This document shows, one piece after another, positions 1-37,793 of a stretch of DNA of 37,793 bases. The stretch spans positions 1 to 37,793 of the IMG/VR virus record IMGVR_UViG_3300038492_000435; one strand, given 5' to 3'. Under the pieces are notes generated by a model. It made no database searches and was not told the DNA's origin. It worked only from the letters and a program-made list of their open reading frames with translations. The stretch comes from a virus. Its lineage: Duplodnaviria; Caudoviricetes. A program made the translations under genes and the position numbers. The stretch's first letter is position 1; every line of letters starts with the position of its first letter.

Positions 1-100
1 CTGAGACTGCCCCTCCTCTGGTTGCGGCTGCGCTGGTTGTCTTTGCTGTGCTGCAAGATCTCTAGTTCCAATAGCTCGTCTAGCAGCGGACTCTTGGGTT
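1..100. repeat. Terminal direct repeat, left copy (assembly circularisation overlap)
   Basis: 1-100 matches 37694-37793 except position 99 (t) versus 37792 (c). The repeat lies inside one continuous minus-strand ORF. Confidence 0.97.
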
Positions 101-363
101 GCCTTAGCGCGCTTCTCATTGAGCAGCATCTCAATGTATTGCGCTGCCTGGCGTTGAAGATTGGGAAGGCCAACGGTAGCTTTTCCCACTTCACTCACAA
201 TTTGGGGAGCTGTCATCTGAGACGTGTCTATCTCGGATAGTCGGTCAAGGGCAGATTGAGCAAGCTTGCGCTCTCCAAGAAGGTTCAACGCATTCGTTAG
301 ACCTGAACCAAAAGACTGGCCAATTTCTGCACCTGGATCAAATTTAGGGAGTATCGTTACCAT
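1..363 (-). CDS. 5' part (codons 1-121) of a ~480-aa putative ejection/DNA-transfer protein that continues across the contig junction into 37693..36614
   Basis: Manual translation from ATG at 363 (SD GAGGT upstream): MVTILPKFDPGAEIGQSFGSGLTNALNLLGERKLAQSALDR...QPQPEEGQSQ. There is no stop, and it is in frame with track ORF 36614..37687. It sits between other ejection-like genes. Confidence 0.85.
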   Translation of the reverse strand, partial: MVTILPKFDPGAEIGQSFGSGLTNALNLLGERKLAQSALDRLSEIDTSQMTAPQIVSEVGKATVGLPNLQRQAAQYIEMLLNEKRAKATQESAARRAIGTRDLAAQQRQPAQPQPEEGQSQ

Positions 364-372
364 TTTTACCTC

Positions 373-1008
373 TTATGATAATCCGCCAAGGGCTAGGGAA
401 ATATCCTGTTGCATTGGTCCGGCTGCTCCAGCGCCTTTCGTCATTGCTGGTGAGCCACCAAGTCCCGATAGAGCACTTAGAGCACCGTACTGAGATAGGC
501 CTTGACCAGCTCCACCTAGTAGACCGCCAAGAAAACCTTGTTGTGGCTGCTGGTATACCGATTCAAACGTGGGTTGCATGCTTTGGCCAAGCAATCCTTG
601 AAGCTGACCAAGTGCATTTTGCTGAAGTCCACCGCGAAGAGAGGCCAGTTGCTCGGTGAGCTCCCTACCTGCCTGAGCTAGAGACTGGTTTAAAGCTGAA
701 GAGCTTTGAGCTCCATGCGTTCCAGCCCCTGCTAACCTTTCCATGATTCCAGGAACAACCTCTTGTTGAAACTGCCTTTTGTATGGAGCCTCGAACTTTG
801 CGAAAGCGCTTTCGTCTCCAGAAAGGAGCTGCTGGAGCATCTCTAATCCAGATGTTGTGGGGCCCTGGACGTTTCCAAGAAGGCTGCTAAATAGATTCTG
901 CTGCTCAGGAGTAAGACGGCTGACTTGCTCGAACTTCCCCTTTTTCCCTCCTAAAGAGCCGAGTCCTCCTAAAACTCCACCTAGTGCTAACATTGTCACA
1001 GGGTCCAT
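373..1008 (-). CDS. Gly/Gln-rich putative ejection (DNA-transfer/pilot) protein
   Basis: 211 aa with a Gly-rich hydrophobic N-terminus (LALGGVLGGLGSLGG), Q-rich helical middle and Gly-zipper C-terminus. SD GAGGT. It occupies the position of P22 gp7-like genes after the tail genes. Confidence 0.65.
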   Translation of the reverse strand: MDPVTMLALGGVLGGLGSLGGKKGKFEQVSRLTPEQQNLFSSLLGNVQGPTTSGLEMLQQLLSGDESAFAKFEAPYKRQFQQEVVPGIMERLAGAGTHGAQSSSALNQSLAQAGRELTEQLASLRGGLQQNALGQLQGLLGQSMQPTFESVYQQPQQGFLGGLLGGAGQGLSQYGALSALSGLGGSPAMTKGAGAAGPMQQDISLALGGLS

Positions 1009-1035
1009 AAATACCTCACATTTTTTTTAATCGTA

Positions 1036-1557
1036 CTACACACTCTCAATATACTCCAATACAACATAGGCCGTTGTATACCCCGTGTAATCTGCGGTAG
1101 TCACGATATTGACATTGGTTGCGTCCACATTCAGTTCGACGTGATTACCTGCCGTATCTACAAATGGCAGTGGGATAAATGAAGTGCTAGGATCTGTGGC
1201 CACTCCATAGATCCGAGTGAATACCGTATTCGACGACACTGTAATTCCATGGGCAACGGAAGTCGTTGTGTTATTGGGGAGTGTGCCGAAATTCACGACC
1301 GTTCTTGAACCGTACCTGTATTTGTTGACGTCTCCAGGGGTGAACCAAGCTTGTCCATTTACGGTCTCTGAAACGTTGACTCCAGACGACAATGTTGCAT
1401 CTTGGTACGTGGCAATCTCTCGAGCGTTAATCGCCTCTGCTATCTTTAAAAGATAGTCCGTCAAGATCAGCTGCGCCTCACCCCAGTCTCTCGGGATGAT
1501 GATATTAGGAGGAATGAAAGGACCAACGGATTCTGTAGGCTCAAATGTACTAGTCAA
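1036..1557 (-). CDS. Putative virion structural/tail protein
   Basis: 173 aa with a beta-rich T/V/N C-terminal half ending VVLEY. It overlaps the stop of the nozzle gene. Confidence 0.6.
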   Translation of the reverse strand: MTSTFEPTESVGPFIPPNIIIPRDWGEAQLILTDYLLKIAEAINAREIATYQDATLSSGVNVSETVNGQAWFTPGDVNKYRYGSRTVVNFGTLPNNTTTSVAHGITVSSNTVFTRIYGVATDPSTSFIPLPFVDTAGNHVELNVDATNVNIVTTADYTGYTTAYVVLEYIESV

Positions 1558-4273
1558 CGAGTCTACCTCCTGATTCTGCCCAGATGATCAGTGCATCAAT
1601 CAAAACATCGCTATTTGCAATGGAAGGGGTGAAGAGTTGTCTCTCGTCCAACTTCAGCTCGAAGTTGAAAAACTGAGCATCTGTTGGGCAAAAGAACCTG
1701 TGCCACTCCTTATTTTTGTTAGTGATTGAAAACTGCTCTTCCTGGGTAGAAAAAACCTTGTTAAAGAAAGCATCGGCGACCTGATTTACAGGCTCTGTAT
1801 CATTGTAATCGACGTAGATATCTGCCGTGATCTCTCCGTTGCTTGTCTTCTGAGCAAGGAAGTCAATGTGCCCAAGGAAAGTCTTTTTCCCTCCCTGGAT
1901 AAAGTTGAAGTTCTTCGACTTCGCCTTGAATCCCATGATGCGCTCAATCACGCCACATCCTGAGTACGTTCCTGCTGCTACCGTCTGAGGAACTAGGTTC
2001 GCATCTAGATTCTGAATGGCCCCGGCGGACGAGTACGCTGTGAAGCCGGTGGAGTCAATGTCTAGGGTTACTGAGTTACCACTCACGGCAACAACTAAAC
2101 CATTTCGGCCATTGATCTCGGTCATCCCTGTCACCTGGTCGATATACCAGTGTTGCCCCACCTGGAATGTATGGCCCGATGCTGTTACCACCGCCTGGGC
2201 TGCCTGGGTAATAGCCGTGATCGTTGTCCTAGGCTTCGTCTGAAGTGTGATGTTGTCTGCATCTGTCACATCAACGGCAAAGATTCGGTCATTGAGCTCT
2301 GAGGATCCTTCACCAACGATATCCTTGATCTTGATGTAGACTGTGGGAATTGAGTCGCTTCCTGTATCGGATGTTAGACCATGATTAGGCACCTCGAGAG
2401 ACACAGGTGTGCCAGCTGTCACATCCTTGATGAAAAGGCTTTCGTCGTTCGACTCTTTCTGAAACAACACCTCAACAAACCCCTGTTGGTTTCCTGCAAT
2501 GATGTTCGGAAACTGGCTTTGTAGCTTTGCGGTTACCCAAGAAAAGTTAGCGGCTTCCCATGTTGTTTCTGTTAGGTCGGCCCAAGTGATATCGTTGAAA
2601 CGCTGATACTCTCCGAAGGCTGTAAAACCATCCGTGAAGATGGCCCATGTCTTATTGTGATAGTTGAACACTAGAAGCCTGTCAGGATATGTGGCCGACG
2701 TTGATGCATCTGGAAACGTCCAGTAAACTAAACGCTCGTAGAAGTCTCGTATTCCGTGTACGCGGAGAGGGCCATCAGAGCCCCGATTGTGAATCTGAAA
2801 TACCTCATCAGGGATGTTCTCATCAATGCGCTCTACGCTGTTGCCATTGCAGGAATTGATAGACTTGTCTCCTACAGACAAAACGCCTTGGTCAAAAGCT
2901 ACCATGCTAAAGGTCGACTCACTTCCCAGCTCGCGGTTGATGCGTTCCCACTGGAAAGGAAGGATTTCGTTACCGGTGTAGCGTAGAACCCAGGTTGATC
3001 GCTCGAATCCAACGACAAGGGTGTCTCGTATGTATTCGGCACTGATGATGTGCTCGTTAGTGGGACAGTCCACATATCCACCACGCCCTTTCACATCGGA
3101 AAGCCATTCATTTGCAGCTGTTGGTGCTGTGCCTGCCGCTACTGAAGTAAATGGGGCCCCATTCTGCGACCATCGAGCTCGCTGTGGGTATTGCAACGCT
3201 CCAGATAATCCACTTCCTGTTGAGCCCTCAAACGTGTTTAGCGCGACCATCCTACCTTTGTAGGGTAGGATGATACGACACTGAAAAAAGGAATTTGTGC
3301 TGTCTACTACAGGTGCCAGGTCATGCCATAATGTGCCATCATAGATACGAATTGGATCTCCGGATGTTCCCGAAAAGTTCGTTGTCCAAAAGTACTGGGC
3401 ATTATCTGAAGTCTGCCAGTAGTTCACCGACCAAAAGAAATCCGAGTCTACTCCAGTCCAAATTGTCGGAGGAGAAAGCTCATCGAATTTATTTGACGTG
3501 TTGTTGAACTTGTAGGCGTAGCGTGTATCAAAGGCAACTGTCTGCTCGGCATTGATGGCATCCAAATTCCTCTGAGGGAGGCCCATCACTGGAAGTCCAG
3601 GGAAATAACCAATCGTGAGAGTAGTGGCCACCGATGCTGTTGCTCCGGTAATGGTGATAGCTCCTGTGGCATAGTTGATTGTTCCAGTAGCTGACGCATC
3701 CCCTGTAAGCGTCCCGTCGCCATTGTCGGTGATTGTCTCCCCGTCAATTGTCATCTCAAAGCTACCACATTCCAGACTTGCATCAGGCTCTTGTGTACTC
3801 AACGATCTATCCGAATACCAGAATCCGCCAGATGTGTACGCACTTGGACCAGCTTGGGTTACTTCAAAGGTAGTCGCTGTCACGTTAGCTATCGTATAGG
3901 TGTTGCCATTCAACTCTGTTGTTCCTACGACTCCGCTGATAGCTACCTCGTCACCGTTGCTAAGTCCGTGCGCGAAAGGTGTCGTAATCACAACTGTAGG
4001 AGCACCACCAATATTGATGGCTGAGATGTACCCTGAAATAGTGAGGAGGTTGAAACTCCAAGGTGACGATCCAGAAGTGAGATAGGCAACCCCCTCAAAA
4101 ATCCTTCGAAGCCTGCCAAGCAGGTCATAGCCAACACGTCTCCTAAGCCTTCCCCTCCACTGATAGATATTCTCTAAATCCTGATATGCATCGTCGGCTA
4201 AAACAAAGGCATCTCTATCTTTGACGAGGCCCTCTTTCTGGTAGGAGATAGCTGTGGGTACGTATTTACCCAT
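1550..4273 (-). CDS. Tail nozzle / packaged-DNA stabilisation protein (P22 gp10 / T7 gp12-like) with inserted FCCH-like beta domains
   Basis: Likely start MGKY at 4273 (TAATG coupling), 907 aa. Beta-propeller-like segments (RARWSQNG, LVVGFERSTWVL, LVYWTFP, LLVFNYHNKTWAIF). FCCH-like motifs AHGLSNGDEVAISGVVGTTELNG and GHTFQVGQHWYIDQVTGMTEING. Confidence 0.75.
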   Translation of the reverse strand: MGKYVPTAISYQKEGLVKDRDAFVLADDAYQDLENIYQWRGRLRRRVGYDLLGRLRRIFEGVAYLTSGSSPWSFNLLTISGYISAINIGGAPTVVITTPFAHGLSNGDEVAISGVVGTTELNGNTYTIANVTATTFEVTQAGPSAYTSGGFWYSDRSLSTQEPDASLECGSFEMTIDGETITDNGDGTLTGDASATGTINYATGAITITGATASVATTLTIGYFPGLPVMGLPQRNLDAINAEQTVAFDTRYAYKFNNTSNKFDELSPPTIWTGVDSDFFWSVNYWQTSDNAQYFWTTNFSGTSGDPIRIYDGTLWHDLAPVVDSTNSFFQCRIILPYKGRMVALNTFEGSTGSGLSGALQYPQRARWSQNGAPFTSVAAGTAPTAANEWLSDVKGRGGYVDCPTNEHIISAEYIRDTLVVGFERSTWVLRYTGNEILPFQWERINRELGSESTFSMVAFDQGVLSVGDKSINSCNGNSVERIDENIPDEVFQIHNRGSDGPLRVHGIRDFYERLVYWTFPDASTSATYPDRLLVFNYHNKTWAIFTDGFTAFGEYQRFNDITWADLTETTWEAANFSWVTAKLQSQFPNIIAGNQQGFVEVLFQKESNDESLFIKDVTAGTPVSLEVPNHGLTSDTGSDSIPTVYIKIKDIVGEGSSELNDRIFAVDVTDADNITLQTKPRTTITAITQAAQAVVTASGHTFQVGQHWYIDQVTGMTEINGRNGLVVAVSGNSVTLDIDSTGFTAYSSAGAIQNLDANLVPQTVAAGTYSGCGVIERIMGFKAKSKNFNFIQGGKKTFLGHIDFLAQKTSNGEITADIYVDYNDTEPVNQVADAFFNKVFSTQEEQFSITNKNKEWHRFFCPTDAQFFNFELKLDERQLFTPSIANSDVLIDALIIWAESGGRLVD

Positions 4274-4905
4274 TATTGGAACCTCCAGACAATGACACAC
4301 GCCCTAGTGAGGCCGGTGACTAGTGTGTTGTTTTGGTTCTTAAAATCCACCTGTAAGCTTCCTACCTTGACGATATCACTGTATGTAGCTGAGTTTGTAG
4401 GCTGTCCGATTACAGGATTGCTAGAGTTATCGAATCCACTACATGACCAAAAGTAATTGGTATCTGGTGCGTTGTTTGTGAAGTTAACAATAAAACGTGC
4501 GCTCCCTGGAGTCGGGACGCTTACAGATGAGACATTTAAGGCTGTACCTTGGATGGCCCCCAGTGAATCAAAATTCACAGCGGCAAATGGAAGCATACCT
4601 AGGTAGAGGGCACCATCTTTTGTCATCTGAAAGGCGGTGCCGTTGCTTTCTGGACGACCGTAAATCTCTGTATCACCAGAGTCATCCTTGGTATAAAGAA
4701 GGTGCTCATCTGCCTGAGATTCTGGGTCGTCAGCCTGTTCCACGAAGGTGATGAATTTGTGCTTTCCCTTGTCACTTGATCCATCATTGAAAGCCACATG
4801 ATTCACAGCGAACTGCGTATTTAGCTGTCCGAAGTTAGTGAGTAAATCACTCTGACTATCTGACAGAATATCTCTGGGCTGAGGAATTGTTGGGTCAAAT
4901 GTCAT
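4273..4905 (-). CDS. Putative tail/virion protein, paralog of 4905..5639
   Basis: 210 aa, TAATG-coupled on both sides. Shares the N-terminal pattern P.P.D..S.SQ.D...NF...H......G.H...TFV.Q with its neighbour. Confidence 0.65.
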   Translation of the reverse strand: MTFDPTIPQPRDILSDSQSDLLTNFGQLNTQFAVNHVAFNDGSSDKGKHKFITFVEQADDPESQADEHLLYTKDDSGDTEIYGRPESNGTAFQMTKDGALYLGMLPFAAVNFDSLGAIQGTALNVSSVSVPTPGSARFIVNFTNNAPDTNYFWSCSGFDNSSNPVIGQPTNSATYSDIVKVGSLQVDFKNQNNTLVTGLTRACVIVWRFQ

Positions 4906-5639
4906 TACGTCACCGTCCAGGCTTGAAATTGAATATAAATCGCATTTGTTTGGGCTCCTGTGCTTGATGAACTCATCGGCATCCCTCGTAAGGCAAATGA
5001 TGTTGTCGTCACGGTGCTTGCATATGCTGCGTTGTTTCTTGGTTGCATGTATACGGGACTGTTATTCCCACCGATATTAAAGCTCTGACATGCCCAAACA
5101 TAGTCCGCTGTTGGCAGTGCATTCGTGAATGCTATATTCCAGTCGGAGTATTTATTGATCCCGTTCACAAGGGCCTGATTAGGTGTGACACTTGTGACAT
5201 TCATGCTAATCGGGACTTTGACAATTGTGCCATCTCCATTAACTTGCTGTTGTTGGAGTATGTTCCCCTGGAAATCAAAAAGCACGAATGCTCGTAGCAC
5301 TAGACCATTGGCGGTTAGTCTTCCCTGGTCTGTCACCTGCACCTCTGTCCCGTCACTAGGCTGCCGATAAAACGCCTCTGCGTTACTTGAGACGTTCTTG
5401 GAATACAGAGCAATTTCATTTGCACCAGTTGAGGGGGCTGCTCCCTGTTGGACAAATGTTACCTTGCGATGGCCTCCTCGTTTGTCAACATCTGAGAAGT
5501 TCAACGGAATGTGATCACCCTCATTGTCAGCAAACGGTCGACCCCAGATATTACTAGCCGTGTCAAAATTAGCCTGGAAGTCAATTTGACTCTGACTGAT
5601 AAAGTCTCCACTAGCTGGGACTGTAGCCTTATAGACCAT
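4905..5639 (-). CDS. Putative tail/virion protein, paralog of 4273..4905
   Basis: 244 aa, TAATG coupling, shared N- and C-terminal motifs (FTNALPTADYVWACQSF versus FTNNAPDTNYFWSCSGF). Confidence 0.65.
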   Translation of the reverse strand: MVYKATVPASGDFISQSQIDFQANFDTASNIWGRPFADNEGDHIPLNFSDVDKRGGHRKVTFVQQGAAPSTGANEIALYSKNVSSNAEAFYRQPSDGTEVQVTDQGRLTANGLVLRAFVLFDFQGNILQQQQVNGDGTIVKVPISMNVTSVTPNQALVNGINKYSDWNIAFTNALPTADYVWACQSFNIGGNNSPVYMQPRNNAAYASTVTTTSFALRGMPMSSSSTGAQTNAIYIQFQAWTVT

Positions 5640-6622
5640 TAAGACCCTCCAAACTGACGATTGCCAACAGGATATTGGAGCTGATCGGTGTAAATCGTCG
5701 CTGTGCGCTGATTGGCTAGCTCTGTCGCTGTGCGATTAAGGACTAGGCTTTCTTGTCTTTCGAATGCTGGCATGATATTTTGGATGCTTTCCATATCCTG
5801 TCTGTCTTCAAGTACCTTTATAGCTGCTCCAAAAGCGATGTACTGCCACCACTGTTGGACATCTGGCGTGTTCGTACCTGCATTGTTATTTGCGCTGAGG
5901 AGCTGTGACGGCTTTTGATACACCTCAATCGACACCTTGTACACCTTGTCCGGAACGGGCCTTAGAATGAAGTAACTGTTGAAAAACAGGCCGGCTGTTG
6001 GTCGGTTAGCTTGGTACGCCACATAACGAGTGATGATGCTCTCCGAGGCTGGGATTGCACTGGTGAACGTAAGAGCGCTCACAGCGCCTGTGACGTAGTT
6101 TATTTGTCCGAGGACTGTTGTATTGTCTGAAGCGTCAATAAGGTCTCCTAACGTCTCTGAACCTGCTTGAGGAGAATCGTAAGCGGTCTGAGTGTCACCC
6201 GAGGTGTCTACAGCGCTAACTGTGACCTCTCTCTTTAGGACTGGCGTTGATGAGAGCGTAAAGGAATAAGGGCCTGCCGTTCCGTCTCCCGATGGCCCAG
6301 TGTATTGGGTTGTCGTCTTCGGATAGATCCGGAAAAACTCCTCTTGAGATTGGGAGTAGAACGACTGGTACCCATCGATGTAAAGCGGTGGGAGCGCTGC
6401 TGTGTAAAGGTCTGTGTCAAAGTCGTATCTGTCTTCATTTGCCACCGTCCAGAATTCATAGTTGCTATGCAGATTCCAAATCTTTAGATGGGCAGGGAGA
6501 TCAGCCTCGTAGAAAGTATCAATGTAGTGTTCGAGGTCTGATTCACTTAACTGATTTGGGGAGGGAGAAGCTGTAAGCCTTCTAACCTTTCTCTTGATAT
6601 CATCGAGTGTGGAGCTTGCCAT
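5639..6622 (-). CDS. Putative head-tail adaptor protein
   Basis: 327 aa. Helical N-terminus (TLDDIKRKVRRLT), LRPVPDKVYKVSIE motif and C-terminal WWQYIAFGAAIKVL are typical of podovirus adaptors. It lies upstream of the nozzle gene. Confidence 0.7.
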   Translation of the reverse strand: MASSTLDDIKRKVRRLTASPSPNQLSESDLEHYIDTFYEADLPAHLKIWNLHSNYEFWTVANEDRYDFDTDLYTAALPPLYIDGYQSFYSQSQEEFFRIYPKTTTQYTGPSGDGTAGPYSFTLSSTPVLKREVTVSAVDTSGDTQTAYDSPQAGSETLGDLIDASDNTTVLGQINYVTGAVSALTFTSAIPASESIITRYVAYQANRPTAGLFFNSYFILRPVPDKVYKVSIEVYQKPSQLLSANNNAGTNTPDVQQWWQYIAFGAAIKVLEDRQDMESIQNIMPAFERQESLVLNRTATELANQRTATIYTDQLQYPVGNRQFGGS

Positions 6623-6951
6623 TATGTCCCCGTAATGCTTGTTTCATTATCTGTTGTTCCTGTGACCGGCCACACCTGCGCTGCTGTAAATGCCGGAGGC
6701 TCCGAGGGAGCTGAAAAGGCAGCTAACAGCGAAGTGTCGAGATCAACAGTGATTTGATCATCGGCAGGGACGGCTAACACTGTAGCTCTCGCATACTCAA
6801 CTGACATCCCATAAGCACTTGGCACAAGAATCCGAACAATCAACCCTACCGTGTAACCGTGATCCTCGGTCGTAGTTAGCACAGCGCTAGTTGCATTGCT
6901 AACAGCCGAAAGAAGTCTCCGACGAGGTTGGAAGTTCGAGAGTATCGTCAT
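6622..6951 (-). CDS. Small virion protein, single FCCH-like domain
   Basis: 109 aa with VSNATSAVLTTTEDHGYTVGLIVRI...YGM...ITVDLDTS. ATGA and TAATG coupling. Confidence 0.6.
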   Translation of the reverse strand: MTILSNFQPRRRLLSAVSNATSAVLTTTEDHGYTVGLIVRILVPSAYGMSVEYARATVLAVPADDQITVDLDTSLLAAFSAPSEPPAFTAAQVWPVTGTTDNETSITGT

Positions 6952-7505
6952 GCCACCGCAAAAAGAGTGCTTTCAAAATTCATTCTAGATCGAGTTTTTC
7001 CCTTCACATCTAGAGTGGGCTTTCCCTGTGAATCCAATACATGCGAGTGCACTGGAACATTACAGTTCTGGTTAAGGTGTCTTGCTACTGATAGAGGCAC
7101 CTCGTATGTCTCACCATCGTACATGGTATACCACTGAACCGGATCCCACTTGTACTTTCGAAAGCAGAATCTCACACAGCCGCCTGCTGGCTCCATGCAT
7201 CGGAATACGCCCTTGACTAGGCGACTTTCCTCTTTCCACATACGATATACTTTATCGTCATCTGGAGAGTCCGCTCTAACCTGGGCTTGGACTTCTTTAG
7301 CCTTCTTCCACTGAACGAACTCCGCAACATCCTCATCTGAAAAATCAAACTTTGTCGTTTGTTTCTCAACTTTTGGCGCTTCCGTTTCCGTTTTAGCTAA
7401 TACCTCTTCTTCTACCTTCGGAGACTTCTCCACTTCTTGAGAACTCTCTTGAGGCTTCACAGGTATATCTAGCTCTTCTTGAATTAGCTTATTCTTTTTA
7501 CTCAT
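6948..7505 (-). CDS. Hypothetical phage protein of the head module
   Basis: Likely start MSKKN at 7505 (SD AAGGA). Acidic disordered N-half and globular C-half (KYKWDPVQWYTMYDGETYEVPLSVARHLN). Confidence 0.75.
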   Translation of the reverse strand: MSKKNKLIQEELDIPVKPQESSQEVEKSPKVEEEVLAKTETEAPKVEKQTTKFDFSDEDVAEFVQWKKAKEVQAQVRADSPDDDKVYRMWKEESRLVKGVFRCMEPAGGCVRFCFRKYKWDPVQWYTMYDGETYEVPLSVARHLNQNCNVPVHSHVLDSQGKPTLDVKGKTRSRMNFESTLFAVA

Positions 7506-7521
7506 ACGTTTCCTTTTCATT

Positions 7522-7551
7522 AAAAAAACCGAGGGGGCTGAGCCCCCCCGA
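7522..7551 (-). terminator. Rho-independent terminator after the capsid operon
   Basis: Minus strand CGGGGGGGC-TCA-GCCCCCTCG, then G and T7, just after the stop of 7558..8523. Confidence 0.85.
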
Positions 7552-7557
7552 AGGTCA

Positions 7558-8523
7558 TCACTCAGCTAGCGAATAACCGCTTGCCAACGCTTCCCAATAT
7601 ATCACGTCGTTATTGCTACCGGCAGGACCATCCGCACCAGCACCAAGCTCCATGACAATTTGAGCTGTGTTGTCAACTGAACCGCTCAACACCGAAGCTG
7701 CATCGCCAACAGGAACAATATGGGCAGGGGTGACCCCAGCGGCTGCCACTGCACTTGTTGGGAACGCAAACGCTGAGAAAGCGCTTGAATCGATGTCTAG
7801 AGTGATGGTGTTGTTAGCAGTGCTAACAGCTGAAATTTCTCCGATGAGCCCCTCAGCTTCCACCATTCCGTAATCGGCCATTCCTTCGATCCTAACCTTT
7901 TCACCAACGGATAGACCATGAGTTACCGCCAGGGTAACAACCATCGACGCTGCCGCTGTTGCTCCAGTGATCCGATTGACCTGTGGAGAATAGATAGGAT
8001 TATTAGGGACTTTTCTAACGAAACCAGCTGTTGCAGCTGCTGCAAAACCTGAAGCATCCAAATAGGAAAGCTCAAAGCTATTTGCTGCTACGTTTCCAAT
8101 TGTGAAATCGTATCCAGCAATCTGGAGCATGCTAGTTGTACCGTAGATACGAATACGATCACCATTGCTGTAACCATGGCCGGTTACAGTCACAACAGCT
8201 GGATTTGCCGCCGTCACATCTGTTCCAGATGTGGCTTGAGCTGCACCTAGAGCCTGGTTAGACTGGTCGATGCGTGTAAATCCGCCGGAGGTGATCACTT
8301 CGAGATCTAAGGCGTTAGAGGCGTTTTGCTTTGTGTACATGAACCCAGCACCATCAGCAAAACCACGTTGCCACTTGAATTCGCATCCGCGACCAGTGGC
8401 TTGCGTTGTTGCTGCTTGTGTGTAGTTCTTGACCTTGAAGATATCAAAGTCTGAACGCAAAGCAATTTGCTTAGCGGTCCCGTCGCTAGTGAAGGAGCCA
8501 GATGCTACTAGTTGTTCAGCCAT
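7558..8523 (-). CDS. Putative capsid decoration/cement protein with two FCCH-like domains
   Basis: 321 aa directly after the MCP, strong SD (GGAGAAGGA). Repeats VTAANPAVVTVTGHGYSNGDRIRI and ATAAASMVVTLAVTHGLSVGEKVRI. Confidence 0.7.
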   Translation of the reverse strand: MAEQLVASGSFTSDGTAKQIALRSDFDIFKVKNYTQAATTQATGRGCEFKWQRGFADGAGFMYTKQNASNALDLEVITSGGFTRIDQSNQALGAAQATSGTDVTAANPAVVTVTGHGYSNGDRIRIYGTTSMLQIAGYDFTIGNVAANSFELSYLDASGFAAAATAGFVRKVPNNPIYSPQVNRITGATAAASMVVTLAVTHGLSVGEKVRIEGMADYGMVEAEGLIGEISAVSTANNTITLDIDSSAFSAFAFPTSAVAAAGVTPAHIVPVGDAASVLSGSVDNTAQIVMELGAGADGPAGSNNDVIYWEALASGYSLAE

Positions 8524-8533
8524 GTCCTTCTCC

Positions 8534-9484: not shown

Positions 9485-9489
9485 TTGTT

Positions 9490-22725: not shown

Positions 22726-22878
22726 GAAATCGGCGTGTCTCACCAATCCTACACCAGTGAGACACGCTGTAGAGGTTAATGCAACCATCTATCAACTTCC
22801 TCCATTTTGTAGCATAGGGGTGGAGAAAGGAGACACGGTACGGTACAACACTTACACTATTGAATACAAGGAGGATGT

Positions 22879-23160: not shown

Positions 23161-23162
23161 CC

Positions 23163-27847: not shown

Positions 27848-28097
27848 AATCCGCTTTTACTGATGCAACGACTTTCTGTCTTGCCGCATAATCTGGAGCC
27901 TTGTCCCACTCATCTAAAAAATGCTGTATTGCAGCTTTCTTCTTATCAGCTTTTTTTTTCGCAGATTCCATCATTGAAGCATCAACTTCTACATTACCCT
28001 TGTTCCACATTTCACCTTCAGAAAATGTGTTAAACATACTTTTTAATCTATCTGAGAATTCATCTCTATCACTAGCTGGGTCAGCATATATGTCCAT
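27831..28097 (-). CDS. Small helical protein, possible tail-fibre chaperone
   Basis: 88 aa, TAATG-coupled to 28097..29332, SD AGGAG. Confidence 0.65.
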   Translation of the reverse strand: MDIYADPASDRDEFSDRLKSMFNTFSEGEMWNKGNVEVDASMMESAKKKADKKKAAIQHFLDEWDKAPDYAARQKVVASVKADYDPIL

Positions 28098-29332: not shown

Positions 29333-29335
29333 TCA

Positions 29336-30187: not shown

Positions 30188-30194
30188 TTTTTCC

Positions 30195-31700
30195 TTAGGT
30201 TACTGTGGGGTTTCCGATTGAACTTAGTACAACAAAATCCGTATTGGCAGTGATACACACCATCTCAACAGAGTCGTATGTGGCTGTAGAGTCTAAACGT
30301 CCCGTGGCTCCTGTTGTAGTGTCTGAAGATCCAAAGTGAATTACCTGAGAGGCGTTCTGGGCTATGCGCCAACCTCCGGCCCCTTTTCCTGTCACTCGTA
30401 CTACATCCCCGACTGCGGCGGTTGATGGCATTGTGAGAGTAACTAAGGCAGCATTGTTAGCAATGTATCCATTGTTAACCGCCATCGTGGCTGAGGTTCC
30501 CGTTTCCTCATTCCATGTAATTCCTCCAGTTACTGTGGAGTTAATGGTAATCGACCCAGCGGCATTCACGATGCTTATGCCTGTTCCAGCTGTCAAAGTA
30601 GAAAGAACGGGATCAACTCCAGTCGATCCTATGAGGACTTGTCCATTTGTTGGTTGGGATGTAGCTGTGAAGGCACTCGTTCCAGATCCAAGGAGGATTC
30701 CCCCATCTGTGAAGGTCCCTGCGCCGGTTCCACCATTGGGAACGGTCAGGGCATTCGTTAGGGTGAATACTTGGGAGCTATCGAAATATGCCGCCTGTGT
30801 ACCACCCGTTGTAAATGAAAGCTCATCTACATTAGAGCGGTACATTCCTGTATTTGTATCATTTACAAAAGAGTAATTAGGTGCTGTATTACTTGGGCTG
30901 TTATTATTTAGGTAGAATCTACCTGTGGAACCGGCGGTAATATTTGTATTGGCTTGTAGACCTGTGCTTGTGACCCACATACGTGTCCCACCGCCAGCGA
31001 TGAGCGCCATTGAATTAGAGCTCGCCCTGGCTATTCCTGTATCTGGGTCAGATGTGAATCGTATGATAGGATCGTTAAAGGCTCCGTCAGCTAAGTTGAC
31101 GTAACCAGTGGTGGTCATATCCACGATTCCAGTCACGTTATCGGTGTCGTCAATGATAACTGAACTATCTTGGATTACATCTCCACTTGCTCCGTCCCAG
31201 CGAGCAATCGCATTGTCAGTACTGCTTCCGGCAGATGTGACGTTGGTAGATCCTGACCCTAGAACTGCAATCGTCTGACGAGTCGGGGTGCTGTCCGTGA
31301 AATAAAGGTTGGTTCCATCAAACTCGATAGCTCCAGCCTCGGGAGAGGTTAAATTCGTACCTGCTGTTAGCTTAATTGGAGCTGTGCTAGCTGCCGCTGT
31401 TCCTGCCTGTATATGAAGAGAAGCCGATGGGCTTCCTTGCCCAATTCCTACCGCGTCTCCATCTGCGTCGACAATTAATGTATCAGTATCGACCGTTAGG
31501 ACTGTTCCTGTTGACCCGTCAATAACAAGTGAGGTAACACCTGTCATATTGTCGGAGTCATCTAAAATGACACCAGAATTCTGTATTAACTTCCCTGTTG
31601 TGGAATCGAACCGCACCACCGCATTATCTGTGGCTGATGCGGGTCCTACTACATCTCCACTTCCACCGCCCCCACCTGAAGTTGTGAAAAACTGACTCAT
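30195..31700 (-). CDS. Tail fibre protein
   Basis: 501 aa with a duplicated TDNA..R(F/W)D...G..IQ.S.VI.DD.DN.TG module, repeated D.(D/N)TG motifs, VPNGGTG, and C-terminal TLTMPSTAAVGD. Confidence 0.8.
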   Translation of the reverse strand: MSQFFTTSGGGGGSGDVVGPASATDNAVVRFDSTTGKLIQNSGVILDDSDNMTGVTSLVIDGSTGTVLTVDTDTLIVDADGDAVGIGQGSPSASLHIQAGTAAASTAPIKLTAGTNLTSPEAGAIEFDGTNLYFTDSTPTRQTIAVLGSGSTNVTSAGSSTDNAIARWDGASGDVIQDSSVIIDDTDNVTGIVDMTTTGYVNLADGAFNDPIIRFTSDPDTGIARASSNSMALIAGGGTRMWVTSTGLQANTNITAGSTGRFYLNNNSPSNTAPNYSFVNDTNTGMYRSNVDELSFTTGGTQAAYFDSSQVFTLTNALTVPNGGTGAGTFTDGGILLGSGTSAFTATSQPTNGQVLIGSTGVDPVLSTLTAGTGISIVNAAGSITINSTVTGGITWNEETGTSATMAVNNGYIANNAALVTLTMPSTAAVGDVVRVTGKGAGGWRIAQNASQVIHFGSSDTTTGATGRLDSTATYDSVEMVCITANTDFVVLSSIGNPTVT

Positions 31701-32032
31701 TAGCCCCTCTTCAGTGTGTAACCAGTTTCATAGAGTGTTCCAGCGCTTGCGCTTCCCTTAACGAAAAGCTCTCTGCCTGCTGGCCATGCTGCGCGATTTC
31801 CGGTTGCATTGGCTTGAATGTCTAATATGAAGAACCCACCGGATGGGATAACATCGTGATCTGTTGACCCATCGTAGCTGATCGTGACATCTTCAGATCC
31901 CCCGTTGTACATCTTATAGACGATGAGATCATCTGAGAATCCACCAGACGATACAACTTGATAAGATCCAGTTAACGTAGATGTGTCGAAGGTGTGCATC
32001 TCGACAGGATCGATTTTGTTTTTATCTGCCAT
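31700..32032 (-). CDS. Small beta-sandwich virion protein, paralog of 33191..33514
   Basis: 110 aa, TAATG coupling, shared F....LT..(Y/F)Q...F.......N...IP/FP.G.....D pattern. Confidence 0.65.
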   Translation of the reverse strand: MADKNKIDPVEMHTFDTSTLTGSYQVVSSGGFSDDLIVYKMYNGGSEDVTISYDGSTDHDVIPSGGFFILDIQANATGNRAAWPAGRELFVKGSASAGTLYETGYTLKRG

Positions 32033-32458
32033 CTAGTCCCTCACACAGTACCCAATGATGGTAATGAAAATATCGTCATCATCTGTCTTTACAAGCACCC
32101 ATTTCCCTGCCGTAACGATGATGCGTAATCCAGTGATATCTCGACTGGTATTTTTAGGCATTTCCATCGTCATTATTGTCTTGTCGACTGTCGTAGTATC
32201 GGGGGTGCTTCCCTCATAAACCACCACTGTTGCATCTGAGGCCCCAACGTTCTTATTGGCATACACCAAGATACCTGTGATGACAAAACGTTGGGTGGAA
32301 ATAGGGGGTACCAGGTCATATCCAGTATTAACCACGTCCGCCGTAGCATTGTAGGACTGTGAATATTCTATATCCCCAACTACAAGCTCCCCCCTAGACG
32401 TAACTTGAGCGACGGTTCCGTTGCCGGCTCCGCTATTTATTAATACTTTAGCGACCAT
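32033..32458 (-). CDS. Putative virion protein
   Basis: 141 aa, N-terminus similar to 32458..33039. Confidence 0.65.
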   Translation of the reverse strand: MVAKVLINSGAGNGTVAQVTSRGELVVGDIEYSQSYNATADVVNTGYDLVPPISTQRFVITGILVYANKNVGASDATVVVYEGSTPDTTTVDKTIMTMEMPKNTSRDITGLRIIVTAGKWVLVKTDDDDIFITIIGYCVRD

Positions 32459-33039
32459 TAATCCGACGATGAAACTGGTTTCAGATGTACCACTAGTGCC
32501 GCATAGGCTTTTATAGATCCTGAACTAAGTTTAGGATCGATTTTTATGGCGACCGACTGCCCTTTAGGCACTGAAAATACTAAAGACGCAAACAGTCTTG
32601 TATTTTGGGCCTGGTATAAAAGTACAATGTCGTCCCCACCAGTAATGGTGCCCCCACTCTTTCCGGCATACGCATCCGCTGAAATCGTTTTAGCCGAACC
32701 GAAATTCCTATTCTGATTCATGCTTACTGCTGTCGCATCCGAGATCAGGTCACCCCCCGTTGGATTACGTATAATGGTGACTTCACCTATATCAGAGACG
32801 GTACCCGATCCCTGACCCACGGCAACTGCATCTACTACAGCATCAACATCCTCATTATTTTTAAAATAGAGGAGCGTCCCTGCTGCCGTAAACGTAATGT
32901 TCCCACTATTAATGTTGTAAGCATCTCCGCTCTCGACGGCGTGTTCTACTTCTGTTTCATTAATTGACTGTACATGTAGACGATTTGTTTCATCTACCTT
33001 GACCTTGTATCCTGATCCTTTTCCATCTTCAATGATCAT
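32458..33039 (-). CDS. Putative virion protein
   Basis: 193 aa, begins MIIEDGKGSGYKVKVDETNRL. TAATG coupling on both sides. Confidence 0.65.
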   Translation of the reverse strand: MIIEDGKGSGYKVKVDETNRLHVQSINETEVEHAVESGDAYNINSGNITFTAAGTLLYFKNNEDVDAVVDAVAVGQGSGTVSDIGEVTIIRNPTGGDLISDATAVSMNQNRNFGSAKTISADAYAGKSGGTITGGDDIVLLYQAQNTRLFASLVFSVPKGQSVAIKIDPKLSSGSIKAYAALVVHLKPVSSSD

Positions 33040-33194
33040 TATTCCTCTCCAACGATTCTTTCTAACATTTCTTTAATCTGTCTGACTTCCTCTAAAAGTT
33101 GAGCGAGGTAATCATTGTTCTCTAATGCCTTTCGATAGGCATTGTTTTTATCCTCTGATTCTTCCTGTGAAGGAAGTACACCACCGCCGCTCAT
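33039..33194 (-). CDS. 51-aa coiled-coil protein (not in the ORF track)
   Basis: MSGGGVLPSQEESEDKNNAYRKALENNDYLAQLLEEVRQIKEMLERIVGEE*. Fills the gap exactly with ATGA and TAATG overlaps. Confidence 0.8.
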   Translation of the reverse strand: MSGGGVLPSQEESEDKNNAYRKALENNDYLAQLLEEVRQIKEMLERIVGEE

Positions 33195-33514
33195 TCGTCT
33201 AATACCGCCATTATGTAAATGGTTCCTGTACCCGATCCGTCGTCAGATCTAACCCGTAGCTGAGCATTCTTTTGAGCCAATGCCTTTCCTCGGACATTCG
33301 TTCCTAGATCTGTCACCTCATCAATCGTTATGATTGATCCAGCTGGAAATCGGAAATTACTCTGATTATCTGTTATGAAAATCCCTCTATTCGATTCATT
33401 CATCACGATAAATTTCACTACTGGAGCTTCAAAAGGCGTTCCGAATGGTTGGAAATTCCGCGTTAGCTGATCGCTGTTGAACGAGAGAAGAATTGTTTTT
33501 GCAACGTTGCTCAT
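33191..33514 (-). CDS. Small beta-sandwich virion protein, paralog of 31700..32032
   Basis: 107 aa, ends GSGTGTIYIMAV. Confidence 0.65.
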   Translation of the reverse strand: MSNVAKTILLSFNSDQLTRNFQPFGTPFEAPVVKFIVMNESNRGIFITDNQSNFRFPAGSIITIDEVTDLGTNVRGKALAQKNAQLRVRSDDGSGTGTIYIMAVLDE

Positions 33515-33562
33515 CTAGTACCGAATGGGGGGCGACACGACAACCCCCCACCCCTGATTCAT

Positions 33563-34699
33563 TTAGTTTTGACGAATGATGTGATACATCACAATCGAAA
33601 CATCATTGGTCTCTGTGCTTCCGGGAGATGCAGCTTGTACGGCTGTAATTGTGAAGCTTGTGGCCGCTGAGATCGAATAGGTCAGATGACCAATCGCTGT
33701 GGAGCTATTCACATCCTGACGCTGGATAAATATCCTATCCGTAGCAGCAATGTTTGTGTTCGCAACTGTTACTGTCCCGGAGCTTAGTGTGGCTGTTCCG
33801 ATAAAGTCGGTGACAGCACCACCATTCATTTGCAACTGGGTAGCAACTGCGCCGAGAACCAAATTACCTTTGTTAACGGTGACATCTCCGGCTTCAGCCA
33901 TCGTAAGCAGCGGATCTGTCCCAATGTCGTTATCACCGCAAATGAGCAGGTCATCACTACCTGAGGCGTTATCAATCCCCATGCTGTAGTTTTGTCCGCC
34001 AGAAATTTGAAATCGAATACCTGGGTTACCACTGGATGTACCGCCAACCGCTGCCTCAAAGAACGCATCACTTGCTGCATTTGTGTTATCGGAGTTTGTT
34101 ACTTGAAGGAGAACCTCCGCGCCTGCTGCACTTCGGCTTTCCACCAAATTCCCTGTGAGGAGATTCACTTGACCATCTGAGTCGATGTTAAACTGATCCG
34201 TTCCTCCACTATCTTCTACAATGAAGAAATTAGAGCCTGCCGCATCTCCGAGTTGGACGATGATATCCTGGCTTGCAGCTGCGTTGATGTTAAGATCTGC
34301 TGCTGAAGCTGTGTAGATCGGAGATGTGACACTTGTGGCAAGTGAAATAGCCGCATCTAGGTTAAATGTGATTGTGCTTCCGGCACCGGCGGTCGTGATA
34401 TTCGTTCCACCTGCTAGAGTAATATTTCCACCGGAAGGAGAAAGAGCCCCACCGCTGTCACCTGTTAGCGTATCTACATCTGAAGCACCTGGAGAGGCTA
34501 GGGCCCAGGTTGCAGAGCCTGCGGCGACATTAGTGAGAACCCAGCTTTGATTATTGCTACGGTCTACCCATAGCGTACCGATAGGATAACGACGATCTGT
34601 TGTCGCAGGATTACGCTGGGCAATGATGTTTTTAGGTCTGTTGACTGGATTGACACCTAGATAGCTATCAGGGTCTTGGCCATTTCCATTGATCGACAT
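33563..34699 (-). CDS. Tail fibre/spike protein
   Basis: 378 aa. N-terminal YLGV......I...RNP..TD..Y..GTLWV anchor, TLTGDSGGA motif, C-terminal GTATLSSGTVTVANT. Confidence 0.75.
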   Translation of the reverse strand: MSINGNGQDPDSYLGVNPVNRPKNIIAQRNPATTDRRYPIGTLWVDRSNNQSWVLTNVAAGSATWALASPGASDVDTLTGDSGGALSPSGGNITLAGGTNITTAGAGSTITFNLDAAISLATSVTSPIYTASAADLNINAAASQDIIVQLGDAAGSNFFIVEDSGGTDQFNIDSDGQVNLLTGNLVESRSAAGAEVLLQVTNSDNTNAASDAFFEAAVGGTSSGNPGIRFQISGGQNYSMGIDNASGSDDLLICGDNDIGTDPLLTMAEAGDVTVNKGNLVLGAVATQLQMNGGAVTDFIGTATLSSGTVTVANTNIAATDRIFIQRQDVNSSTAIGHLTYSISAATSFTITAVQAASPGSTETNDVSIVMYHIIRQN

Positions 34700-34765: not shown

Positions 34766-34903
34766 CTACTTTTTCTTTGTCTTCTTTGACTTTCTCTTGC
34801 GACGCTCTTTTTGGAGCTGTTGAAGCATTTCGGTCATCTGCTGACGGTTAAGTTTTTCCAGTCTCTTACGGAAAATTTCTATTGAGTTTCCTTTATCCGC
34901 CAC
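34766..34903 (-). CDS. 45-aa basic micro-protein (not in the ORF track)
   Basis: GTG start with SD GAGGGA. MADKGNSIEIFRKRLEKLNRQQMTEMLQQLQKERRKRKSKKTKKK*. Overlaps the stop of 34893..36617. Confidence 0.65.
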   Translation of the reverse strand: MADKGNSIEIFRKRLEKLNRQQMTEMLQQLQKERRKRKSKKTKKK

Positions 34904-36617
34904 CTCTGTCCCTCGCTTTTTCTACGACTCTACGCCGAATTTCGGTTTCCTTCCCACCTTTGTAGCGCCTTCCAGATTTACCTTGAGATTTAGCTTTTTT
35001 GATTTCCTGACTGATCTGCTTTGTGACTGCAAAGATCATCTCTTCAAGCACATCATCTGGGATATCCTGTAAAGCTGCCTCTGTCTTCTTAAGGTCTTCC
35101 TTGCGTGTCGCTGCTTTTGAGCGCAACACAAGGTCTTCGAAGTTGTCAACGTACTGAGTGACAGCAAATACCTTGTCAGCATCACGGACCTTTAGAAGGT
35201 CTTCATCCTTCACATATTTCTCAGAAATTGCACGGTAAGGATAGAGAGCATCACCGTTTTCATCCTTCGCCTTGATGAACTTGTCGAATGCATGGCCAAT
35301 GCTAGGGTTCTTACCAGTGAACCAAGCACGGAACATGTTTTCACCGCGCGTTACAGCCTCTCCGCTTCCCTTTAGGACCTCTTCAATGGCACTTTCAGGA
35401 ACATCGAAATACTCATACATCGCCCCTTTCTTCCCTACTCCAGATGGGGCAAACAAAGTCTGAAGCTTTTGCTCTTTTGGATCGTAGTCGATATATCGGA
35501 TGTTAGACGACTTGAGAGCTTTTAATGGCTTTACATCTCGGCTTAGGCCTTCACCTCGAGGTCCAGTATCGATCTTCCCAATTGAAGAGACAAAATCATG
35601 GATATCTTTGCCTCCCGTTCCAATGTAAAGCGGCTTTACATTACCTTGTTCAAGTTCCTGAACTGCCTCCTGTTCTAGCTTGCTCTCTGAAGGAATGGGA
35701 GGGGGCCCTTCCACTTCGCCCTTTTCCCCCTCCTCTCCTTCTCTGACTTTTCTCTGAGCCTCCTGGATGATCTCAAGAATCGGACGGCCTTCCTGATCTT
35801 CAATAGACTTCAGCCTGTCCTTTCGGAAATTCTGCTCTAGCCCTCTCTTGATTGTATAGGGATCATCGACCTGTCTTAGCCAGTCATCAATAACCCTCCC
35901 ATACCTTGCACGCAACAATTCTAAGCTCTTTTCTGGAGTTCCTCGTGGAACCTCCTCAACCTGAGCTTCAACCTTGGCTTCTTCCATAGGCTGACCAGGC
36001 GCCTGGGTGACCACCTCATCAGCTGCTAGCTCCTGCTCATCTCCTGGCTTTACATCCTTGACCTCTCCGGCCTGTATTGCTGCTAAGAGCTTAGGAGCCT
36101 GCGAAACTGCTGCTGCTGTACCTCCAGCCTTGATTAGGCTTTTGAGCCAATCAGAGAGCCCCATTCGGCCACCTTGTTCAACGTGCTGATTGTATCTCTT
36201 GAGGAGGTCGTTATACCCAGTAAAACCACCAGCGGCTCCAGCAAGCGCACCTACTGGACCTCCCGCAAGTCCTCCCGCCGCTGCCCCCAAGCCAGTCGAA
36301 AGGATCCTCCCAGGATCCAAAACCTCGGAGATTGCATCTTTCTGCTCATGCTCGGCCTCGAACTGCTTTACAGATTCAGGGCGCATATCTCCCATAACTT
36401 TTAAGGCACGCTCATACGATGGAACGCCCTTCTTTTGATGTGTTCCTAGGGTCGTGTCCATGCCCTTCCCTAGGAAGTCCATGATCTCGTCAGCTGTATA
36501 GCCAAACGCCATGGCATTCTTAATCTTGTCAGCAATCTTAGGACTCATCTTTGAAAGGAACTCTATAACGTCCTTTGCTGAGTGGCTTGCTAGTCTGAGA
36601 TTCGTAAATGGGTTCAT
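34893..36617 (-). CDS. Putative ejection/internal virion protein with a KTSC domain
   Basis: 574 aa. Gly zipper (GLGAAAGGLAGGPVGALAGAAGG) and KTSC pattern SSNIRYIDYDP....L...F.......YEYFDVP...SIGHAF..FIK. Confidence 0.75.
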   Translation of the reverse strand: MNPFTNLRLASHSAKDVIEFLSKMSPKIADKIKNAMAFGYTADEIMDFLGKGMDTTLGTHQKKGVPSYERALKVMGDMRPESVKQFEAEHEQKDAISEVLDPGRILSTGLGAAAGGLAGGPVGALAGAAGGFTGYNDLLKRYNQHVEQGGRMGLSDWLKSLIKAGGTAAAVSQAPKLLAAIQAGEVKDVKPGDEQELAADEVVTQAPGQPMEEAKVEAQVEEVPRGTPEKSLELLRARYGRVIDDWLRQVDDPYTIKRGLEQNFRKDRLKSIEDQEGRPILEIIQEAQRKVREGEEGEKGEVEGPPPIPSESKLEQEAVQELEQGNVKPLYIGTGGKDIHDFVSSIGKIDTGPRGEGLSRDVKPLKALKSSNIRYIDYDPKEQKLQTLFAPSGVGKKGAMYEYFDVPESAIEEVLKGSGEAVTRGENMFRAWFTGKNPSIGHAFDKFIKAKDENGDALYPYRAISEKYVKDEDLLKVRDADKVFAVTQYVDNFEDLVLRSKAATRKEDLKKTEAALQDIPDDVLEEMIFAVTKQISQEIKKAKSQGKSGRRYKGGKETEIRRRVVEKARDRGGG

Positions 36618-37793
36618 TGTACCAACGTGTTGAGGGCTTCCATTACGGTTCTGTCTTCTGTCATGATTTCTAAGATAGATGGTCGCGTATTTTCCATCAT
36701 GTACGATTGCTCTCGGTTTTGGTGAGGCTGTAATCTCATGCCCTTCGTCACCTCATCGATGATTTCGTTTGCTTCTCTATCCGAATACCCCTTTTCTAGG
36801 ACTAACTTTGTCTTCAAAAGTAACAGCGAATCAGATGGCTTGAAACTCTCTCTTAGAGAGGCAACAGCCTCTTCCTTGTTGTCTTCAAACAGTCCTCGAC
36901 GGTCTGGAAAAATCCCAGGTCTCTCCATTTTTAGCTCCATTCTAGGAGCCTTCTTAAATCCTGATTCTAAAGCTTCGCTAAAGGGTTGGACAATTCCAGT
37001 CGCTTCACGTCTAGACCATCCTGAATTCATCAAAGTAGACTTCAAAAGCTCTCTATCTTCATCGGTGTTTCCATATTCTCTTAGGTGGCCGGTTGCCCAT
37101 TTTCTAGCTTGTTGGAATCTTTCCTTTTGGTTCCCCCTTATAATAGGTCGGAAGTTCTTCTGCGCCGAGGTTGCTATATCATTGATCTTTCGCTCAATCT
37201 TACGACCTGCCTCATTCCATAAAGCTTGTTCACTTTTTCCTCTGTTCTCTGGTTTTGCTCGTTCTTGCTCAAACAAATTTACAGAGATTCGGTTCCATTG
37301 CTCAGGGTTCCCAGCTACACCATTCTTTTCTAACAACTTTGATGTTTTATCAACCACATCCGCTGCGACCTCTTTTTCAAGCTCCCTCTGTGCAGCTCTT
37401 TCAGCATTACGCTGCTGAGCCATTTCGATCTCTTGCTGGCGCATACGAATTAGCTGGTCTTCGGCACGTTGCTGAGCCTGATTGGCTCCTGCTACGTCTC
37501 CAACTTCAAGAAAAGGTGCTCTAATCTGATCGATTGCCTGGGGAGACAAAAAATACTGACCGACCTCCATGGATTCTGACTGAGGAATCTGACGCAAGTC
37601 TCTTGGCTGTGGCTCTTGTCCTGGCATTCCCCGTTGCATAGCTGCCATCGCTTGAGGTTGGCCTAAAGCTTGCTCTCCTTCACCCAAAAATTGCTGAGAC
37701 TGCCCCTCCTCTGGTTGCGGCTGCGCTGGTTGTCTTTGCTGTGCTGCAAGATCTCTAGTTCCAATAGCTCGTCTAGCAGCGGACTCTTGGGCT
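36614..37793 (-). CDS. 3' part of the ~480-aa putative ejection protein that starts at 363
   Basis: Open frame runs from the window end to TGA at 36614. Helical and Q/E/R-rich. ATGA-coupled to 34893..36617. Confidence 0.85.
   Translation of the reverse strand, partial: AQESAARRAIGTRDLAAQQRQPAQPQPEEGQSQQFLGEGEQALGQPQAMAAMQRGMPGQEPQPRDLRQIPQSESMEVGQYFLSPQAIDQIRAPFLEVGDVAGANQAQQRAEDQLIRMRQQEIEMAQQRNAERAAQRELEKEVAADVVDKTSKLLEKNGVAGNPEQWNRISVNLFEQERAKPENRGKSEQALWNEAGRKIERKINDIATSAQKNFRPIIRGNQKERFQQARKWATGHLREYGNTDEDRELLKSTLMNSGWSRREATGIVQPFSEALESGFKKAPRMELKMERPGIFPDRRGLFEDNKEEAVASLRESFKPSDSLLLLKTKLVLEKGYSDREANEIIDEVTKGMRLQPHQNREQSYMMENTRPSILEIMTEDRTVMEALNTLVQ
37694..37793. repeat. Terminal direct repeat, right copy
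   Basis: 99/100 identical to 1-100. Confidence 0.97.

Follow-up and report, generated by a model that had tools for sequence, protein, structure and literature searches.

A complete podovirus-type phage genome with links to environmental Chlamydiota

The described chlamydial phages, in the relevant passages of PMC4589997 and PMC5010888, are the chlamydiamicroviruses (Gokushovirinae, Microviridae), phages of Chlamydia with circular single-stranded DNA (ssDNA) genomes of 4.5-5 kb; the original prediction for the DNA studied here had correctly taken characterized chlamydiaphages to be ssDNA Microviridae. Here we analyze IMG/VR virus record IMGVR_UViG_3300038492_000435 (37,793 nt; "the window" denotes this whole stretch). 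It probably derives from a phage that likewise infects chlamydiae, in this case an environmental member of the Chlamydiota, but it is a tailed double-stranded DNA (dsDNA) genome of 37.7 kb, with neither a small ssDNA genome nor a microvirus capsid.

Tailed-phage DNA does reach environmental chlamydiae. A group of prophage genes lies on plasmids of Protochlamydia massiliensis and Criblamydia sequanensis (passages of PMC7846284), and a terminase gene lies in an island of P. naegleriophila (passages of PMC5010888). As described there, these are remnants with tail tip protein L, of the long-tailed type, which sets them apart from the window. No database sequence matched the CRISPR spacers of environmental chlamydiae (passages of PMC5010888), and the passages of PMC8242063 and 10.1101/2023.03.17.533158 deal with CRISPR only. 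With the described phages all tiny ssDNA viruses and the spacers unmatched, what infects environmental chlamydiae was an open question. Our literature search, which reached few subscription papers, found no account of tailed phages that infect Chlamydiota or Babelota. In older work, electron microscopy reportedly showed particles resembling phages in chlamydia-like organisms.

The genome and its family

That the genome is closed, as originally predicted, is borne out by its ends. The 100 nt at either end overlap, 98 of them exactly; at the single differing base, position 99, reads of run X1 show the base of the other end, and a reading frame stays open over the junction (309 to 1, continuing from 37693 to 36614). 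The unit is therefore a circle of 37,693 bp, and the overlap is, on this reading, an assembly artifact of that circle and only putatively a terminal repeat. In run X3, an organism-labeled run of a separate study, 11 short pieces that match window positions 1-19000 at 99% or more occur at low depth.

Profile scans covered 54 open reading frames (ORFs) of the window with Pfam and PHROGs and 46 with NCBIfam. An HK97-class capsid, a portal and a terminase are all encoded, which places the window in the Caudoviricetes, probably of podovirus type. The structural genes comprise the terminase large subunit (TerL), a P22-type portal, an N4-gp56-family capsid, a weakly SU10-like adaptor, an FCCH protein and fibers; the replication side has an initiator, a Cro-like regulator, RecT and YqaJ, a lambda-like replication and recombination set. 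The predicted N4-gp56 major capsid protein (MCP; TIGR04387), FCCH protein and DLTP membrane protein are present, and so is the SpoVG-like ORF, at a score under the cut-off. Tail type was judged from genes alone, by the weak SU10 adaptor match and weak matches to phrog_584 (over the FCCH stretch) and phrog_167 (E 2.6e-4); no tail tube or sheath families were found in the Pfam and PHROGs scans. No integrase was detected in the window by Pfam, PHROGs or NCBIfam, PF00589 being absent. Read from its sequence, the window is a real, complete podovirus-type dsDNA phage.

Podoviruses of the P22/SU10 type with an N4-gp56-family capsid (the Bacillus phage Page group, Pseudoalteromonas vB_Pun_Y3 and Xanthomonas DES1) have the same portal, adaptor and capsid families, but their MCPs are only 21-26% identical to that of the window. 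All 25 capsid matches in INPHARED fall in this range, and by that comparison the capsid family is without a cultured member. N4-like phages (Schitoviridae) carry a virion RNA polymerase on a genome of ~70 kb; the window has 37.7 kb, a largest ORF of 916 amino acids (aa) and no RNA polymerase match. The family is large and undescribed: 2,448 capsid relatives were found at E <= 1e-10, the capsid family occupies 499 stretches in IMG/VR, and a structural core is common to 16 near-complete relatives. In nine relatives (L086, L090-L093, L095, L096, L098 and L099) the capsid gene is split by insertions of 200-1100 nt at recurring codons, likely group I introns, although Rfam intron models found no match in these 9 loci; the window's own capsid gene is uninterrupted.

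Evidence on the host

An integrated relative of the window lies in G289, a genome of the Chlamydiota sample, where it occupies 35,739 bp (41,986-77,724) of a 137,359-bp contig, C1. In an order similar to that of the window, it encodes homologs of Cro, YqaJ, DLTP, fibers, FCCH, adaptor, MCP (25%), portal (31%), the terminase small subunit (TerS) and DUF1064. Its GC content is 0.435, versus 0.456 and 0.449 in the flanks, which carry PPi-PFK, ribH-ribBA and kdsB-pyrG-ruvX. The flanking PyrG is 71%, 66% and 66-82% identical to three Chlamydiota metagenome-assembled genomes (MAGs) versus 53% to Actinomycetota and 44% to Babeliales, and RecA of G289 is 80-85% identical to four Chlamydiota versus 62-69% to four others. 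Two dif-like 28-mers with a common 17-nt core border the prophage and are laid out like a dif site; the left one is the only exact dif match in the G289 genome. FtsK-orienting polar sequence (KOPS)-like motifs are oriented toward the site, with ratios of 5:1 to its left and 2:5 to its right, and GC skew shows no clear flip there. No tyrosine recombinase (PF00589) was found on this contig, and two strong ones lie on other G289 contigs. Since the prophage has two dif-like borders and no integrase, it likely used the host XerCD for its integration.

The same traits are known from IMEX, integrative mobile elements that exploit Xer, such as CTX-phi, TLC-phi and VGJ-phi, which have no integrase of their own and integrate at dif through a dif-like attP (passages of PMC9226527); the G289 prophage has two flanking dif-like sites at the host dif and no integrase. 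Those examples are filamentous or satellite phages of Vibrio, whereas G289 has a tailed phage of 35.7 kb, and the window, which also has no integrase of its own, differs from them in having no dif-like attP. The terminase of the G289 prophage consists of two ORFs ~3.4 kb apart with small genes between them (L138:7560-8309 and 3289-4089), and the prophage also carries a SocA-like antitoxin and other toxin-antitoxin-type genes.

A capsid scan of GTDB identified 21 loci in 20 MAGs: 4 titled Chlamydiota, 1 Babeliales and 1 whose contig matches a genome of the Babelota sample, the rest being a single Legionellales MAG and 13 scattered ones, 3 of them archaeal. Chlamydiota number ~635 (estimated from 46 of 73 Parachlamydiaceae lying within our sample of 400) and Babelota 261 of the 199,900 genomes, so that enrichment over background (~0.3% and 0.13% of genomes) is ~60-fold and ~75-fold, respectively. 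Because their contigs are no longer than 40.6 kb, 20 of the 21 loci are binning links only. Capsid profile searches matched 8 of 400 Chlamydiota (one further genome was unscored) and 2 of 251 Babelota, and together with the GTDB enrichment this agrees with the originally proposed association of the gene set with Chlamydiae and Babeliales MAGs. The portal was found in 1 of 73 Parachlamydiaceae, and YqaJ in 3 of 39 members of the family of G003, on short contigs. Among metagenome capsid matches, the best 80 of 602 all lie on contigs of at most 40.1 kb. The original prediction had named relatives integrated in free-living taxa as evidence against it; the only long contig of that kind (L091, 546 kb, Actinomycetota) is a chimera, its 41% GC phage being cut within genes at both ends, with a left flank of ~72% GC and a right flank of 61% GC whose composition lies outside 28 host chunks. 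The contig of L094, from a MAG titled Pseudomonadota, matches G525 of the Babelota sample. The 1.1-Mb genome of L088 has a Babelota-like composition affinity. On a 223-kb chlamydial contig (G175:C4, L134:18626-19324), a lone MCP remnant (38%) and a terminase fragment lie among BTB, U-box and DUF4116 genes.

The dif motif used in our searches, GTCYGATAA-N6-TTATGT, is present in 137 of 151 Chlamydiota genomes, in most of them as a single copy, and in 0 of 121 Pseudomonadota; dif sites have been predicted for 14 of 14 Chlamydiae (passages of PMC3025954). In three genomes with phage contigs (G003, G004 and G256) the motif is matched twice, once on the phage contig and once on a contig that is not of phage origin. 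A search of IMG/VR for the motif gave 120 loci, 80 with long flanks; 16 of these long loci have at least two window-family genes and 3 have one. The motif is also present in a close relative of the window, L002/L184 (MCP 91%), which shares its starred clade. In L449 (G365:C59), a short contig from Parachlamydiaceae, ~400 nt separate a DLTP gene from an exact copy of the dif motif. A quick portal tree (64 rows, SH-aLRT support only) places the window with L184 in a starred clade of 7 rows. The window lies outside a separate starred clade of 14 rows, which contains a Babeliales contig together with several whose binning is odd; none of these is marked with the dif motif.

Tetranucleotide composition was compared, in GC-normalized and Markov-normalized form, with stretches from 15 Chlamydiota, 10 Babelota and 17 others. 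The GC-normalized correlation of the window is 0.63 with Chlamydiota, 0.38 with Babelota and 0.36 with the others. In both measures Babelota are the nearest group for all 6 members tested from the 14-row clade, two unbinned ones among them, and all 15 other phages, the window included, correlate better with Chlamydiota than with Babelota in the GC-normalized one. Tree and composition together set a Babelota-like subclade apart, with the window leaning toward the chlamydial side. The DLTP profile matches 8 of 401 Chlamydiota versus a single one of 261 Babelota, where the match is marginal (E 9e-4) and contains stops. DLTP matches on three long chlamydial contigs (G175:C3, G189:C5 and G307:C27) have no other family gene or dif nearby and are therefore weak or isolated.

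Lysis, life cycle and competing hosts

The original prediction rested in part on a lack of recognizable lysis genes, and at profile level this holds: no endolysin, holin or spanin was found among the 54 window ORFs (Pfam, PHROGs) or the 46 scanned with NCBIfam, and profiles detected no muralytic domain in the two likely ejection proteins at 34893-37693. A standard endolysin, the other finding that the original prediction had named as refuting it, thus did not turn up in these scans. The 16 relatives contributed 795 ORFs, with 391 clusters lacking a window homolog; 150 + 81 ORFs were scanned with Pfam and 58 + 126 with PHROGs, mostly one representative per cluster, and no muralytic, holin or spanin families were seen among these representatives. 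As a rough control, the same scan found peptidoglycan domains (GH108, 3D) in 2 of the 116 ORFs taken from 10 unrelated viral loci, all of them partial. A structural model of the 175-aa protein at 11383-11910 (pLDDT 82) matches only uncharacterized phage proteins; its fold search gave nothing above Z 5 and listed no lysin, which leaves a lysin possible. An ADF/cofilin-like fold, to which most of the top weak matches belong (Z 3.4-4.3), was rejected as too weak at a best Z of 4.3. PDB profile searches with two conserved hypothetical proteins gave nothing below E 0.1, and an ESM Atlas search with two ORFs gave no usable match. The DLTP protein is the sole ORF among 52 with a strongly hydrophobic segment and the last late gene, and a loose lipobox occurs in 90 of 120 homologs; it is the best candidate for phage release or envelope weakening, a role that is a guess.

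In the life cycle that we propose, the window phage would infect an environmental Chlamydiota bacterium with no detectable endolysin or integrase, replicating by means of its initiator and RecT/YqaJ. Family members with a dif-like site would integrate at, or resolve dimers through, the host XerCD; the window phage, which has no such site, would be lytic or persist as an episome. Release without a classical lysin could follow from a weakening of the envelope, for which the DLTP lipoprotein is the best candidate, once the bacterium, or the eukaryotic cell around it, bursts. Entry into the eukaryotic cell would most simply take place bound to or inside extracellular elementary bodies, and not as a free virion. 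We infer all three of these features (lytic or episomal lifestyle, lysin-free release and carriage with elementary bodies) as the most likely course.

The case for a chlamydial host is good at the level of the family and moderate for this genome, and several observations weigh against it. The G289 relative is remote (MCP 25%, portal 31%) and sits on a long branch; an empty-site search with its right flank gene matched only G289 itself among 26 genomes and found no genome with an empty site. The 7-row portal clade of the window has no MAG-binned member, and the 13 of 20 GTDB matches in unrelated taxa, 3 of them archaea, reflect noisy binning, which itself follows composition. In Markov-normalized form the composition signal is weak for the window (0.41, 0.32 and 0.38 for Chlamydiota, Babelota and others) and ranks Chlamydiota first in only 7 of the 15 phages outside the Babelota-like clade. 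The dif motif occurs as well in Babelota (15 of 71 exactly, 42 of 71 with one mismatch) and in one Ignavibacteria MAG; 61 of the 80 long IMG/VR loci with the motif have no window-family gene; 2 of 15 close relatives have it exactly and 4 within one mismatch. The window has no dif-like site, its best score of 10.9 lying within the 9.8-16.9 of 30 shuffles. Fold modeling covered one hypothetical ORF of the window (11383-11910).

Matches in so many other taxa would also fit a free-living aquatic or sediment host whose lysin is too divergent for profiles, the chlamydial links then belonging to other branches or to co-binning. Such a host would suit the depth of 170-500 seen in a small run of aquatic origin, which is high if the host is rare, the presence of the dif motif in many unrelated phages and the yield of the lysin control, only 2 matches in 10 partial loci. 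However, the other taxa are scattered over phage-sized contigs with no repeated lineage, the one long contig is chimeric, no family contig exceeding 40.1 kb was seen among the best 80 metagenome matches, and the motif carried by L002 is absent from all 121 Pseudomonadota; we regard a free-living host as unlikely. We give still less credence to a Babelota (Dependentiae) bacterium, although it too would be obligately intracellular, MCP occurs in 2 of 251 Babelota genomes, the Babelota dif resembles the motif, and the 14-row subclade includes a Babeliales contig and is Babelota-like in composition in 6 of 6 tested members. The window stands outside that subclade, its composition is farther from Babelota than from Chlamydiota in both measures (0.38 versus 0.63, 0.32 versus 0.41), the DLTP protein is nearly absent from 261 Babelota, and no integrated copy was seen in Babelota. 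Another wall-poor or host-associated prokaryote (Legionellales, a relative within the Planctomycetes-Verrucomicrobia-Chlamydiae group, Patescibacteria or an archaeon) seems very improbable: MAG titles in the GTDB scan name Legionellales once, Planctomycetia once and archaea three times, all as single scattered matches on short contigs, and although an absent lysin fits archaea, the XerCD-type dif motif and the sigma-70 region 4 domain are bacterial and the integrated relative sits in Chlamydiota.

Returning to a chlamydial host, the earlier proposal of an intracellular host gains from the MAG link, the chlamydial dif prophage, the dif sites on closer relatives, the distribution of DLTP and composition, and loses two of its arguments. 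Sigma70-like promoter sites at 9400-26000 number 21, versus 25.0 +/- 5.2 in shuffles, which is chance level. Peptidoglycan scarcity cannot be assumed as a general property of such hosts, because peptidoglycan has been isolated from Protochlamydia (passages of PMC10591338) and Chromulinavorax, of the Babelota, has a complete mur pathway (passages of PMC6561590). For the family as a whole, we lean somewhat toward a widespread group of podoviruses, with thousands of capsid variants, that would be specialized in separate branches on protist-infecting obligate intracellular Chlamydiota and Babelota, would have dropped endolysin throughout, and in many members would use host XerCD/dif instead of an integrase. 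If this is true, no tailed dsDNA phages of Chlamydiota would have been known before them, and they would be a natural route of DNA delivery into genetically intractable environmental chlamydiae. As targets the family offers marker genes, a hypothesis of integration at dif and a candidate route of release that needs no endolysin; the way in which tailed phages get to bacteria living within eukaryotic cells becomes testable, with a bearing on gene flow into chlamydiae.

Gene map and minor observations

Table 1. Predicted features of the window (positions in the 37,793-nt record)
Feature	Positions	Strand	Basis
Terminal overlap with 37694-37793	1..100		Circular assembly
5' part of junction-spanning gene (~492 aa), likely ejection protein	1..309 (on into 37693-36614)	-	Position; putative role
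Gly/Gln-rich conserved protein, likely pilot/ejection	373..1008	-	Match in 15/16 relatives; putative role
Conserved 173-aa protein, likely virion	1036..1557	-	Conservation among relatives
916-aa FCCH-domain protein, likely tail nozzle	1550..4300	-	PF16190 E 3.5e-17; 16/16 relatives; putative nozzle role
Two paralogous tail-region proteins, 210 and 244 aa	4273..5639	-	Comparison with relatives
Head-tail adaptor, SU10-like	5639..6622	-	PF24175 E 0.0055, weak; 16/16 relatives
Three conserved proteins, 109, 190 and 321 aa (DUF7243/FCCH-like)	6622..8523	-	Profiles and conservation
Major capsid protein, N4-gp56 family	8534..9484	-	TIGR04387, 140.5 bits vs cut-off 60
Likely scaffold protein	9513..10295	-	Position and conservation
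SpoVG-like protein, acidic C-tail ending PF; likely ssDNA-binding	10461..10775	+	E 1.6e-5, under cut-off; putative role
Conserved 175-aa protein, no lysin fold found	11383..11910	-	Predicted structure, fold search
P22-type portal	12452..14536	-	PF16510 E 2e-76
Terminase large subunit, PBSX family	14601..15935	-	Pfam, NCBIfam
Likely terminase small subunit	15880..16335	-	Position; 29% to gene upstream of TerL in G289 prophage
DUF1064 nuclease/resolvase	17567..17899	-	Pfam, PHROGs
Replication initiator	19163..20113	-	phrog_4707 E 5e-26
Cro-like regulator	21523..21801	-	Pfam, PHROGs
RecT-like annealase and YqaJ exonuclease	21985..24050	+	Pfam, PHROGs
Sigma-70 region 4 and coiled-coil protein	24355..25227	+	Pfam, NCBIfam, below cut-offs
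DLTP protein, likely lipoprotein, candidate lysis/envelope factor	25286..25513	-	Last late gene; putative role
Tail fiber/spike and small beta-rich virion proteins	25513..34699	-	PF22237, PF24146, phrog_697, phrog_31660
Pair of large proteins, likely ejection: one of 574 aa (KTSC domain), the other the 3' part of junction-spanning gene	34893..37693	-	Profiles

The SpoVG-like protein and several of its homologs end in an acidic C-terminal tail closing with PF, a motif that suggests ssDNA binding. A weak Pgp3_N match (E 4.6e-4) in the fiber of a relative was rejected, as a PDB search gave it no backing. Some relatives also have genes for C1q-like fiber tips, two of these in Chlamydiota MAGs, for a protein with Kelch repeats and for a beta-barrel of the outer-membrane type (L119:3089-4237, L143:11269-12444, L296:7290-8504 and L114:14877-15491). 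An identical 21-nt near-palindrome occurs twice in the window, at 18764-18784, between genes, and at 35622-35642, inside the 574-aa gene.

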